Positions 17,461-34,378 of a stretch of DNA of 64,000 nt are shown piece by piece. The translations under genes and the position numbers were made by a program. The notes under the pieces are model-generated. The model saw nothing but the letters and a program-made list of their open reading frames with translations. It made no database searches and was not told the DNA's origin. Position 1 is the stretch's first letter, and every line of letters starts with the position of its first letter. Where the stretch lies: NCBI GenBank assembly GCA_951406725.2, contig OX597822.1, positions 20,584,001 through 20,648,000 on the forward strand, written 5' to 3'. The DNA is from Octopus vulgaris (taxonomy: Eukaryota).

Positions 17461-18050
17461 AAGAAAGAAGGTTTGAAAATGCAATTTAAACGATGTTTAT
17501 TTACTTAACCGGTTTCACTCTTTGGTAAAAGATTGTCAAAAGTAACATTAAAAGTAACATTGAATAATATGGGTTCAAAAAAGTTTTTTACATAATTGTC
17601 ACATTGAATATTATGCATTCAAAAAAGTTTTTTACATAATTGTCACATTGGATATTATGAATTCAAAAATGTTTTTTTATACATAATTGTCACATTACAT
17701 GTATAAATATAGTGTTTGGTAACAGAGAAGTTCAATAGTGTGATGAGAATATTTGGAAAAATTGGCAGAAAAGGATAAAACAAATATATTATTGGAAATT
17801 TGGTTGCGTTAATTATTGGTTGTCGCAAATTGTCACATTACATGTATATATATACAGTCTTTGGTATATATATATACACACAGTCTTTTGCCAGCAAAAA
17901 TTAAAATGGATTTTTTATACATCTCAGAATATTTTAAGTTGAAGGCGAGAATACGTTTTTACTGACCTGTTTGTTTTAGCAGAAAGGTTGAAATGAGAGA
18001 AACCTTTTTTCTTATATAATCCCACTCGTGCGATACCCCACAACTCAACT
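17461..18050 (-). mobile_element. Penelope-like terminal-repeat fragment with a ~43-bp minisatellite (17557-17696)
   Basis: Bounded by (TA)n tracts; carries a hammerhead-like motif at 17501-17545; tandem ACATAATTGTCACATTG units. Confidence 0.55.
17501..17545 (-). ncRNA. Candidate minimal hammerhead ribozyme (U3-A8 core variant)
   Basis: TTACTT|TTGACAA|TCTTT-tacc-AAAGA gt|GAAA|CCGG|TT|AAGTAA: 6-bp stem I and palindromic stem III. Confidence 0.5.
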
Positions 18051-18078
18051 TTTATATATATATATGTATATATATATA

Positions 18079-18561
18079 TTACGGAGATGTACTCGCATAG
18101 CAAGTAATTTGATCTGAGATCGTGTGCTGAAACGAAAACAATTGCAGCGTGGAAGGTGTTTATAAGCCATTTAAGAAACACACAAAAGCCGTTCGATTCG
18201 CTTCAACATTTAAGTTTAATTTGTCAAAATATTTTCGTCGCTAAAATCCGCGACCTGTTCACTGACAAAAATCCGTGCTGCATCGCAGCACGGATTTTTG
18301 TCAGTGAACAGGTCGCGGATTTTAGCGCCATTTCGAGCTCTCTCCAACTCTATTACATAAATTATGCATGACTCCACCTCATTTCTCCCCTTCCTTCCTT
18401 CCCTCCCCCGTGTCCCTCTGATTTACAACGAACACCTCTAACAGGTCGCGGATTTTAGCGACGAAAATATTTTGACAAATTAAACTTAAATGTTGAAGTG
18501 AATCGAACGGCTTTTGTGTGTTTCTTAAATGGCTTATAAACACCTTCCACGCTGCAATTGT
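18079..18561. mobile_element. Fold-back (inverted pseudo-LTR) PLE-type element in (TA)n, with a templated insertion in the right arm
   Basis: Arms 18138-18281 and 18285-18561 are reverse complements with a 3-nt loop (ATC); the right arm is interrupted at 18328-18440. Confidence 0.8.
18220..18269 (-). ncRNA. Candidate minimal hammerhead ribozyme (G3-C8 core variant)
   Basis: TTTGTCA|GTGAACA|g|GTCGC-ggatttta-GCGAC|GAAA|ATAT|TT|TGACAAA: 7-bp stem I, 5-bp stem II and palindromic stem III. Confidence 0.6.
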
Positions 18562-18584
18562 ATATATATATATATATGTATAAA

Positions 18585-18622
<38 letters not shown>

Positions 18623-18663
18623 CATATATATGTATAAATAAATATATTTCTTTAATTTATGTT

Positions 18664-18703
<40 letters not shown>

Positions 18704-18709
18704 ATATAT

Positions 18710-18866
18710 ACGACGGGCTTCTATAACTTTCCGTCTACCAAATCCATTAACAAAGCTTTGGTGAACCCGTGGTTATATAAGACACTTGCCCAAGGTGCCA
18801 CTCACTGGGACTGAACCCAGAACCATGTGGTTTGGAAGCAAGCTTCTTACCATACATCTACGCCTA
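18710..18866 (-). mobile_element. SINE family A, 5' half
   Basis: GACACTTGCCCAAGGTGCC...GGGACTGAACCC...AAGCAAGCTTCTTACCA. Confidence 0.8.
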
Positions 18867-19591
18867 CATCTATACATACATACATACATACATACATACA
18901 TACATACATACATACACACACACATTTATATCAATGTATGTATTTTATTAGCGTGCTTATGAATAGAAGAAATCCAATTTGAATAAAGAATTCAACGACT
19001 TAAAAATCAGAGTATTTAAATAAATATTATAAGAATAAGAATTGATTGCAATGTTTTGAGAACGTTTGTATCAATCAAATGTTATTTTAAAAATCTGTCG
19101 TTTCCCTCTCGCTCTCCCTATCCCTATATTTATATATCTTATACGTGTGCGTGTGTATGCATTTAGTGCTCGTTAACGCCATTTCGAGCTCTCTCCAACT
19201 CTATTACATAAATTATGCATGACTCCACCTCGTTTCTCCCCTTCATTCCTTTCCTCCACCGTGTCCCTCTGATTTACAACGAACACCTCTAACTTGAAAG
19301 AATCATAACGAATTGGCTATCTGTTTCTCCATATTAATGACCTACACAGATACAGAAAAAAGCTATTTGTGGTTGTGAAAAAAATATGAAATACGAATCA
19401 TATTTAATTTATTGTATAGATATAAGGTTTTGAATCAATCGAGAAAACAATCTTGCTTCTCTTGCAAGCCGTCAACAAAGGATGCATAATCAACGACTCA
19501 CATTTTATCACACACACACACACAGTATACATATATATATTGTGGATATATATATGTATATCGTGTATATATATATTGTGTATGTATATAT

Positions 19592-19649
<58 letters not shown>

Positions 19650-19684
19650 TGTGTGTACATATATATAGTTATATTGTGTGTGTG

Positions 19685-19731
<47 letters not shown>

Positions 19732-19780
19732 ATATATATATATGTATGTATGTATGTATATATATATATATATATATATA

Positions 19781-31670: not shown

Positions 31671-31939
31671 ATTCTATTTTATGTGTTGCATTGCAATTTA
31701 GTGTTGTAAGGAAATAAAGTAAAGCAGAAAATTATCAATAAACACAGTTTTAAAAGCTTCACAAGTCACAGAAATTTGGAAATGTTCAACTTTATGCTGA
31801 TATCAAAGTTGTAATAAAATATATGCACATAACATACAAAATCACTCCATAAAAAAAAAACTTGCTGTAAGTCATTTAGTATAACATATATAATTTAAAT
31901 ATATAATCTGTGTGTGTATGAATATACGTGCATGTGTGT

Positions 31940-31977
<38 letters not shown>

Positions 31978-32007
31978 ACATATAAACATATACATAAACG
32001 CACATAC

Positions 32008-32052
<45 letters not shown>

Positions 32053-32568
32053 TTTCATATATAATAGTGTATAAACAATTTACGGATTTATACACGAAAG
32101 AGGTGACCTTTGACAGGACACCTTACATGCTAGAAAGGGCAGTTAAAGCTCAAACCACGAATAAGAGCAATTTCAAAGGCAACTTTCTACCCTTATTAGT
32201 TTCACAGTAAAATTTTCGTAGTTTCAAACCCTTTCTGGCACGCAGTTTTAATTTTTCATTATTTGCTGTCGAATGTAACTGCTCTTGCGCAGTAGATTTG
32301 AAAGTATAATGTATAAGTATGTAGTGCATGGATTTTCGGTGCTATTTGCTGCATAAATATTCATTAATTTTAGCGTACTCACTGTAGAAGTACAGAGGGC
32401 AAATTAATTTATTTTGCACACTGATGCAGAAACTCGAGCCTGAGCTATCTACAAAAATATTTTTTTAAATTTTAATTTCCTTTGGAATTGCTGCTTTTCG
32501 CGTCCTGTCAAAGGTCACCTTTTGCGTGTATAAATTCGTAAATTGTTTATGCACTATTATATATGAAA
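32053..32568. mobile_element. MITE with ~65-70-bp terminal inverted repeats
   Basis: TTTCATATATAATAGTGTATAAACAATTTACG...AGGTGACCTTTGACAGGAC versus GTCCTGTCAAAGGTCACCT...CGTAAATTGTTTATGCACTATTATATATGAAA. Confidence 0.85.
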
Positions 32569-33387
32569 ATATGTTTATTGACTTTATTACACATGCTAGC
32601 CACCGGTATGAAATTTTCTTCTGAATTTTCTACCCTTATTATTTTCACAGTATATATTATTATTTCCACTATATATATATATATTGAGGTTATAGGAGGT
32701 AATGGTGTCATTGAGACCCAAAGGTGTCAGATAATGCTGAATAAGTGCTATAGACAGACCATAGTTAAGTTCCAGGTTCGGTGATTTTGCGAATAAGGGT
32801 TTCAACGTTGGTCATATGCCAGCGTGTGTATATAAGAATTTTTTGCGTAATGAGATAAAAAAACCAACGGTGTGTAGATATTAGAACATTTATAGATAGA
32901 AGGTCTTACAGCTGTTTCCAGGATATTTATTAATTATGTCCCTTCATCGGAGACAGTGTGAGGGGATGGTTAAGTAATAATTAATTTAGATAGGATACAA
33001 AATAGAGAGTGAGGTGGAGGAAAGAAAATAGATGTGAAATATGTAGGGATATTGAATTTATAGATCCATTTTTAGGCAGAATGGTATATATGTAAGATTC
33101 AAATACCTTATGAGAAAAATCCAACAGTATTTAAAATATTTAAATACTGTTGAATTTTTCTCATAAGGTATTTGAATCTTACATATATACCATTCTGCCT
33201 AAAATATTTAAATACTGTTGAATTTTTCTCATAAGGTATTTGAATCTTACATATATACCATTCTGCCTAAAAATGGATCTACAAATTCAATATCCCTACA
33301 TATTTCACATCTATTTTCTTTCCTCCACCTCACTCTCTATTTTGTATCCTATCTAAATTAATTATTACTTAACCATACCCTCACACT

Positions 33388-33439
33388 GTCTCCGATGAAG
33401 GGACATAATTAATAAATATCCTGGAAACAGCTGTAAGAC
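33388..33439 (+). ncRNA. Candidate minimal hammerhead ribozyme (CCGAUGA core); mirror copy at 32903-32954 (-)
   Basis: GTCT|CCGATGA|a|GGGACAT-aattaataa-ATATCCT|g|GAAA|CAGCTG|TA|AGAC. Confidence 0.65.
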
Positions 33440-33468
33440 CTGTCTATAAATGTTCTTATATATACACA

Positions 33469-33703
33469 TCTATTTTTTTACTACCCACAAGAGGCTAAAC
33501 ACAGAGAGGGCAAACAAGGACAGACAAACGGATTAAGTCGATTATATCGACCCCAGTGCGTAACTGGTGCTTATTTAATCGACCCTGAAAGGATGAAAGG
33601 CAAAGTCGACCTCGGCGGAATTTTAACCCAGAACGTAGCGGCAGACGAAGTACTGCTAAGCATTTCGCCCGACGTGCTAACGATTCTGCCAGCTCTCCGC
33701 CTT
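33469..33703 (-). mobile_element. SINE family B inserted in the fold-back arm
   Basis: TSD ATATATACACA on both sides; absent from the left arm. Confidence 0.85.
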
Positions 33704-33838
33704 AATATATACACACCGTTGGTTTTTTTATCTCATTACGCAAAAAATTCTTATATATATATATATACACACACACTTACTTGGAAACGGATGCATCGCG
33801 TTCAATTAAATAATAAATTATAAGTAATATATATATAC

Positions 33839-33916
<78 letters not shown>

Positions 33917-34306
33917 GTATATATGGGTACAGGACCTCACCGATGGTGAAATACGTAAACAAACGAGAGATAATCGAGTGGAAAACCTAAACAACAAGAA
34001 AAATATGGAAAACAGGAGAAATTAACACAGAGAAAGTACCCCTCATCAGTTGTCAGTTGTCTATCTACTCCTCATTTGTCGTCGAATGCTTGAAATGTAG
34101 CAGTTGATAAAGAGATAAATGAATTAGAAATGAATTACAACGCTTACAACCCTATGACCCCACTATGCTCCATGCGATTCTTACAAGTTGTAGTCTATTC
34201 CTAGTTACAATAACAACAACATGTATTTCTTCCATCTAACTCTATTAAACTATATAGGTAAAATTATATTGATGTGTCCTAATTGTTAAAATTCTGTTTA
34301 TTTGTT

Positions 34307-34378
34307 CAGCTGAAGATAGCACTGCATTTAAATTGATGTATTGATTTCATTGTTCAATTACTTGAAACGGTCGTTCTG
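34307..34378 (+). ncRNA. Degenerate hammerhead-like motif
   Basis: CAG|CTGAAGA|long AT-rich stem II region|GAAA|CGGTCG|TT|CTG. Confidence 0.3.

Follow-up and report, generated by a model that had tools for sequence, protein, structure and literature searches.

A stretch of 64,000 nucleotides of the Octopus vulgaris genome (assembly GCA_951406725.2, contig OX597822.1, positions 20,584,001 to 20,648,000; called the window below) carries minimal type-I hammerhead motifs with differing letters at core positions 3 and 8. It raises the question whether such cores are kept by selection in Penelope-like elements (PLEs) or are the private decay of single copies. The role of hammerheads in PLEs is disputed: they cleave poorly in vitro, are dispensable in one reconstituted insertion system and may be passengers, as has been suggested. 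Cleavage of minimal PLE hammerheads was described as weak and restricted to dimers (Cervera and de la Peña 2014, PMC4209133). Positions 3 and 8 form a tertiary Watson-Crick pair that is part of the active conformation (Roberts et al. 2023, PMC9901934). The results presented here show that G3-C8 and U3-A8 are the states of whole repeat families, and that the 3-8 pair covaries within one PLE clade.

At least six hammerhead-like motifs had been reported in a preliminary description of the window, and all seven copies were located in the window letters with their cores as written. They belong to six repeat families (B, A, C, E, D and F), family D being represented by two copies. The family A motif (18220 to 18269, minus strand) has the core GTGAACA, which corresponds to G3-C8. 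It consists of stem I (TTTGTCA/TGACAAA), an unpaired G, stem II (GTCGC/GCGAC), GAAA and a palindromic stem III (AATATT), and the cut is predicted after UU, between 18227 and 18226. Stems I and II were formed in its predicted fold (z -3.5). The family B motif (17501 to 17545, minus strand) has the core TTGACAA, corresponding to U3-A8. Its stem I is TTACTT/AAGTAA, U10.1.U11.1 is followed by a 5-bp stem II and GAAA, stem III is the palindrome ACCGGT, and the cut is again predicted after UU.

Each window family was searched in the genome (2.8 Gb in 227 contigs), and the best 20 to 30 loci per family were read. As the best loci are biased toward the window copy, pattern counts with positions 3 and 8 left free were added. 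The family A pattern gave 7,178 matches genome-wide and its reversed control none; among the first 100 matches listed, 93 had G3-C8, seven differed by one change and none had C3-G8. The family B pattern gave 198 matches, with U3-A8 in 98 of the first 100 listed, the other two being C3-A8 in both arms of one insertion. As control DNA, 112 pieces of 10 kb each were drawn from fixed coordinates outside the window, 1.12 Mb in all. Among the copies covering the core in this DNA, GTGAACA was found in 6/7 of family A, U3-A8 in 2/2 of family B, CCGATGA in 4/4 of family D and C3-G8 in 12/13 of family E. The family A motif was also covered by contigs from four sequencing runs (organisms labelled A, A, B and D), and no core variant of family A was present among the differences listed (40 of 60). 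G3-C8 is the family state of A and U3-A8 that of B, as had been proposed, and private decay is excluded. The core consensus C3 U4 G5 A6 N7 G8 A9 ... G12 A13 A14 A15.1 ... U16.1 H17 was found exactly in families E and F. Families A and B differ from it by a compensated 3-8 swap, C and D by U4C, and a sister family of A, A2, by A9C.

As covariation across unrelated repeats is weak evidence on its own, the sister families of family A supply the real case. A pattern search with the C3-G8 form of the family A motif gave 30 matches versus 3 in the control. Eight of the ten loci read from this search belong to one old family, A1, which shares with family A the beginning of stem I, the unpaired G and stem II; at one of these loci (L330) a remnant of family A's endonuclease lies upstream. 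A profile search with A1 in which the core was ignored gave further copies, all C3-G8 where readable, and also the younger family A2, with the core CTGATGC (C3-G8, A9C). A quick tree of 26 proteins joined the protein families of A2 and A as sisters (SH-aLRT 99). A covariance model of A, A1 and A2, run on the window and on 99 of the 112 control stretches, found family A3 at five loci, with the core TTGAAAA (U3-A8).

Homology downstream of the ribozyme was present in five of the six pairs among A, A1, A2 and A3 (z 4.2 to 10.7). The remaining pair, A2-A3, reached z 0.6 with a tail-less A2 copy, and the two tails were joined by BLAST at E 1e-7. For 15 pairs involving B, D or E, z was at most 2.1. 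Positions 3 and 8 were paired in 16/16 chosen copies of the A clade (C-G 7, U-A 5, G-C 4). Stem II was 97.5% paired, with two pairs changed on both sides, and stem I only 72%, because the A1 copies are decayed. The 3-8 pair covaries within one clade, since the G3-C8 family has homologous sisters with C3-G8 (two) and U3-A8 (one), so that C-G, G-C and U-A occur on one scaffold. The earlier claim that both positions change together as a Watson-Crick pair was thus supported across families and among homologous sisters. Two switch events lie in the A clade, one of them a double transversion, and C-G was presumably the starting state, judging from A1, A2 and the general consensus.

The motifs could also be chance look-alikes in AT-rich repeats. 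A descriptor with only G5, A6, A9, the three stems, GAAA and UH fixed matched 53 times in the control DNA, versus a mean total of 8.1 in local shuffles. By 3-8 pair (shuffle mean in brackets) these were C-G 31 (0.3), U-A 9 (1.4), G-C 2 (0.2), C-A 4 (0.3), U-G 2 (0.4) and other 5, so that 42/53 were Watson-Crick. About 8 false matches per 1.12 Mb are therefore expected of so loose a descriptor, and three extra matches in the window (5880, 57845 and 58565) look spurious. The enrichment is nevertheless confined to the paired 3-8 states, compensatory stem changes exist, and the location in both PLE end repeats (pLTRs) agrees with that of published PLE hammerheads. A chance origin is very improbable for the set as a whole, and for families A, B and E it is ruled out by control enrichment, pLTR position and compensatory changes. 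The four C3-A8 control matches were considered as a mismatched family and rejected: two are CpG-decayed arms of C2, one lies inside a PLE frame (L181) and one is a singleton. C2 is an older relative of family C, and its better-kept copies read CCGACGA.

The hosts of the two swapped cores were identified from near-complete copies. In the full-length family A element L206 the motif stands at 1742 and at 6003, 4.26 kb apart, in both 1,118-nt direct repeats, which are 98.4% alike. At locus L205, family A has an open frame of 1,025 amino acids with reverse transcriptase (RT), a CX3CxxC linker and a GIY-YIG domain. In family A about 55 nt separate the predicted cut site from the start codon downstream of it, and the motif lies upstream of both insertion ends that define the tail. 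Direct pLTRs, an inverted 5'-truncated copy, an optional tail and a (TA)n target were all seen in this family. In L145, a near-complete relative of the family B copy in the window, the motif is located just upstream of a frame of 415 amino acids and one of 726 amino acids with RT and GIY-YIG. Motif and protein of family B are linked in L145 and L141, with a Pfam RVT_1 match, inverted pairs and TA flanks; direct pLTRs were not seen in the family B loci read. The motifs YVDD/YLDD and Y-I-C...YIG-T...R--EH were recognised by eye in the L205 and L145 frames. Families A and B are endonuclease-bearing (EN+) PLEs with RT and a GIY-YIG endonuclease. Family A may be Nematis-like and family B Neptune-like, going by motifs and not by placement of the clade in a reference tree.

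That all hosts are PLEs had been assumed from the start. This holds for the G3-C8 and U3-A8 families; families C (19814), D (32903/33388) and F (34307) have the anatomy of PLEs, and a PLE protein was linked in none of the three. The short copies of A, C and D are inverted 5'-truncated arms with a tail on one arm and (TA)n targets. The reading frame at L095 was tried as the host of family C and is that of A2; a host of family D via L068 was likewise rejected, as that copy is short and the endonuclease remnant comes from another element. The order endonuclease before RT, as in Naiad PLEs, was not found in A and B, where the endonuclease is C-terminal, and for these two families the motifs are not the missing hammerheads of Naiads. 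A 602-amino-acid frame at L148:3951-5756 (minus strand) resembles a PLE-type RT end with a long Asn-rich stretch and an endonuclease-like C-terminus, without a Pfam match.

The motifs could be relics, the changes having been fixed in master elements by founder effect and the paired 3-8 states going back to a few lucky events or to past selection. There were only about four switch events (A, A3, B and G), C-G to U-A takes only two transitions, other core positions drift in some families, and Naiad PLEs thrive without canonical hammerheads according to the available text of Craig et al. (2021, PMC8557442). Yet C-G to G-C takes two transversions, and among the clusters with at least two matches in the control DNA (13, or 14 if C and C2 are split) 11 were C-G, two U-A, one G-C and none mismatched. 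The permutation p of about 0.001 is indicative only, because the families are related and not independent, three clusters are single loci and one C-G call comes from two differing copies. Variation within family A is also concentrated in loop II: among 98 copies, variants marking subfamilies (at least 25%) were found in 4/8 loop II columns versus 0/41 core and stem columns (p 0.0003). Finally, family B was recently active with U3-A8, because its copies are 98-100% identical, many of them 99-100%, and the frame of 726 amino acids is open. The relic explanation is accordingly quite unlikely.

It is likely that selection keeps positions 3 and 8 paired whatever the letters, but several observations weigh against an intact, active ribozyme. 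Family A2 has A9C in all four copies covering position 9 (L225:5504-5558(-), L241:2958-3012(+), L095:1732-1786(+) and L283:1380-1434(+)) with the stems kept, and may be either a tolerated variant or a lineage with an impaired ribozyme. The preliminary description had called G5, A6 and A9 invariant, which for A9 is true of the window and not of the genome. U4C occurs in C, C2, D and part of E; in family D it was found in 22/26 descriptor matches (L285-L299 among the loci) and in 4/4 unbiased copies. CpG decay of C4 may account for some of the U4 copies. Stem II is closed with U.U in B and F and with A.N in C and D, while an unpaired base after A9 with G10.1-C11.1 is found in A, A1-A3 and E and not in B, F, C and D. 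Together A9C, U4C and the unpaired 10.1-11.1 may mark a relaxed core. Covariation of positions 4 and 11.1, suggested by family C (C4/G, U4/A), was rejected, as C4 is combined with U11.1 in C2 and with C11.1 in E.

Further points on the same side concern the fold and the counts. The dimer stem III of family A is marginal at -0.2 kcal/mol, and as a monomer only one of the six window motifs, that of family A, folded better than shuffles. The contrast in variation between flank and core/stem was not significant in family A (p 0.22 and 0.08). The pair-count shuffles ignore relatedness, so that the A clade provides two switch events and not 9. A G3.G8 mismatch was present in 1/100 of the listed family A pattern matches, about background, and in 8/30 family A loci obtained with a G8 query, three of which share duplicated flanks. 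As an ancestral intermediate subfamily G3.G8 is unsupported, being at 1/100 in the unbiased set and enriched through the G8 query and DNA duplications. DNA duplication has multiplied one family A copy, which has lost internal sequence and whose core is damaged, on several contigs (L301, L303, L305 and L308-L311), with flanks in common up to 3.1 kb. In the available text of Frangieh et al. (2024, PMC11167929), moreover, insertion in vitro did not require cleavage, and RNA-seq showed no ends at the cut site.

In one alternative, selection acts on the fold because it binds the RT-endonuclease of the element or serves that protein in packaging the RNA, with slight or incidental cleavage and with the 3-8 pair kept for shaping the junction. 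Inserted copies span the site and derive from uncut RNA, the A9C and U4C families expanded, and cleavage of the PAc hammerhead needed protein and was dispensable in vitro (PMC11167929). However, every family seen retains G5, A6, G12, A13, A15.1-U16.1 and an NUH site, none of the six window families has lost the palindrome of stem III, and the 3-8 contact is a feature of the active conformation (PMC9901934). A binding role is therefore considered unlikely.

The explanation favoured, with some confidence, is that minimal type-I PLE hammerheads cut slowly as dimers, probably with the help of protein, on read-through or tandem transcripts. It is preferred because of the PLE precedents, the self-pairing palindromes of stem III and the copies read through the cut site. 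All six family forms of stem III self-paired, at -0.2 (family A), -8.3, -7.4, -11.1, -1.7 and -5.8 kcal/mol. Hammerheads with a short stem III associated with PLEs reportedly cleave as dimers, going by a review and the title of the 2017 work of Lünse, Weinberg and Breaker. The 5' and 3' pLTR copies of one transcript, as spaced in L206, would pair, complete stem III through its palindrome and cut after UH, and the protein of the element would probably assist pairing or cutting. Because inserted copies span the cut site, uncut RNA is the insertion template. Cutting would thus act on another RNA pool, most likely trimming unit-length RNA from read-through or tandem transcripts; alternatively, it might remove the 5' end as a brake. 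For the G3-C8 core, alternative pairing was limited to complements of 5-6 nt far upstream in the pLTR.

Among 17 family A arms starting just upstream of the motif, 10 start at one AG, and in 7/10 there is an additional G (p 0.006), which would fit copying to a capped 5' end. Directly upstream of these clustered 5' ends is a sequence that resembles a branch point and splice acceptor. The cluster is about 23 nt upstream of the core (examples L006, L020, L024, L025, L029, L325 and L329).

More tentatively, and with the balance close to even but slightly against, the G3-C8 hammerhead may be an active ribozyme in more than 6,000 copies, in a PLE clade whose 3-8 pair would have passed through each of its three Watson-Crick forms. 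A double transversion fixed across thousands of copies, with sisters in other paired states, is comparative evidence of a selected active fold. If the ribozyme is active, catalysis would be under selection in living PLEs though dispensable for insertion in vitro, and counts of hammerheads based on CUGANGA, as well as PLE lineages called hammerhead-less, would be underestimates. The families offer a natural panel (G-C, C-G, U-A and A9C) on one scaffold, and search descriptors should allow any pair at 3 and 8. That CUGANGA-based searches miss the variant cores proved correct: the hammerhead search of Craig et al. (2021) used 'cuganga' (PMC8557442), and Rfam gave no match in the whole window at the gathering score. 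At E up to 10, the 17 weak Rfam matches in 18100-18560 included no hammerhead, and at E up to 1 over the whole window the matches listed (150 of 441) were only miRNA/snoRNA-type models (microRNA and small nucleolar RNA) on simple repeats.

The window copies are truncated inverted arms, probably inert in place. The family B motif lies in a truncated pLTR with a short inverted arm (17398 to 18075). The adjoining family A insertion (18080 to 18560) consists of a minus arm (18080-18284), ended by a PLE tail of about 55 nt, and an inverted plus arm (18285-18560) without tail, whose ribozyme is split by a 112-bp repeat (18328-18439) with a 21-bp duplication. This repeat has a second copy near 19178-19292. 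With positions 3, 4, 7 and 8 free, the descriptor recovered 4/7 window copies. The three missed are decayed, by GTAA (19814), a broken stem II (25275) and a damaged stem I with a deletion (34307), and families C, E and F are intact elsewhere.

The family C motif (19814 to 19851, minus strand) has the core CCGATGA (C3-G8 with U4C), a stem II of 2-3 bp with a GCAA cap, stem III ACTCAGAGT and a predicted cut after UA. The insertion that holds it (19781-19996) is short and palindromic, and one of its arms bears a tail. The GTAA is peculiar to the window copy, other family C copies having GAAA. Family D is present as a left arm (32903 to 32954, minus strand; tail to about 32836) and a right inverted arm (33388 to 33439, plus strand) of the same insertion, one event. 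Both read CCGATGA (C3-G8, U4C) and have a stem II with A.G at its base, stem III ACAGCTGT and a predicted cut after UA. The CCGATGA cores are U4C variants and had been listed earlier without comment. The decayed family E copy (25275 to 25308, plus strand) begins stem I at 25275 and has the core CTGAGGA at 25278; the family form is a canonical minimal hammerhead, CTGA(A/C)GA-A-GAGC-TTT-GCTC-GAAA-CG-TA. A broken PLE reading frame (22323 to 23500, plus strand) with an RT YIDD motif and a GIY-YIG remnant lies about 1.8 kb upstream, and frame and motif are probably one element. The decayed family F copy (34307 to 34378, plus strand) has the core CTGAAGA at 34310 (C3-G8), a long stem II with U.U at its base, and stem III ACGGTCGT; copies of the family have UA at the predicted cut site.

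The region is rich in microsatellites and repeats, and microsatellites dominated the repeat search of the window. Clear coding sequence was restricted to the broken PLE frame and to a long interspersed nuclear element (LINE)-like element (4432-7566, minus strand), in which a zinc-knuckle frame is followed by RT and zf-RVT. Type-I hammerheads were also seen in retrozyme-like repeats of about 355-360 bp (L165:2307-4513; L249:8667-9406; L222, L011 and L067). One array was C3-G8 and another family U3-A8; they were 76% alike over the 37-nt ribozyme (E 1.4e-4), the likeness being shown there only.

Comparison with known systems shows that the novelty of the variant cores had been overstated, because U3-A8 in minimal PLE hammerheads and natural U3-A8 were already published. 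The PLE hammerheads of Cervera and de la Peña (PMC4209133) share with those described here the location in the pLTR, a short stem I, a palindromic or absent stem III, an unpaired base between 9 and 10.1, and copies on opposite strands 100-700 bp apart. They include a U3-A8 family with about 1,300 matches in Cercyon elements of Schistosoma mansoni. None of the 56 representatives in Fig. S3 of that source has G3-C8 or C4, and no cephalopod is listed there. Already known are thus U3-A8, the extra base after A9 and the opposite-strand pairs; unlike that set, G3-C8 occurs here in thousands of copies and three 3-8 states occur in one clade. The hammerheads of Perreault et al. (2011, PMC3088659) also show natural U3-A8 covariation and a U10.1-U11.1 mismatch, and U4C is cited there from a viroid, but they are not borne by PLEs, and G3-C8 is absent from the text examined, figures aside. 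No report of a natural G3-C8 hammerhead was found among the papers listed in the literature search, with Lünse 2017, Przybilski 2007 and Ambrós 1998 outside that search.

The hosts resemble the EN+ PLEs of Neptune/Nematis type (Craig et al. 2021, PMC8557442) in the C-terminal GIY-YIG, the inverted truncated copy, the tail at one end and the (TA)n targets. Their CX2-5CxxC linker is matched here by CQSNCAVC in family A and CGRPNCKTC in family B. Naiad PLEs have an N-terminal endonuclease and are reported without hammerheads in the available text of the same paper. In the Poseidon PLE of the green anole, hammerhead cleavage needs the protein of the element, and the tail is defined by two internal start points of reverse transcription (PMC11167929). 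There C3G or G8C alone abolished cleavage and the double change partly rescued it; when all pairwise mutants were screened, no combination in that part of the core other than the G:C swap gave rescue (PMC9901934). What is new here is a predicted high-copy natural PLE hammerhead with G3-C8 and three-state covariation in its own clade. The engineered C3G/G8C molecules have the same G3-C8 core as laboratory mutants (PMC11167929, PMC9901934), whereas here a high-copy family carries that core naturally.

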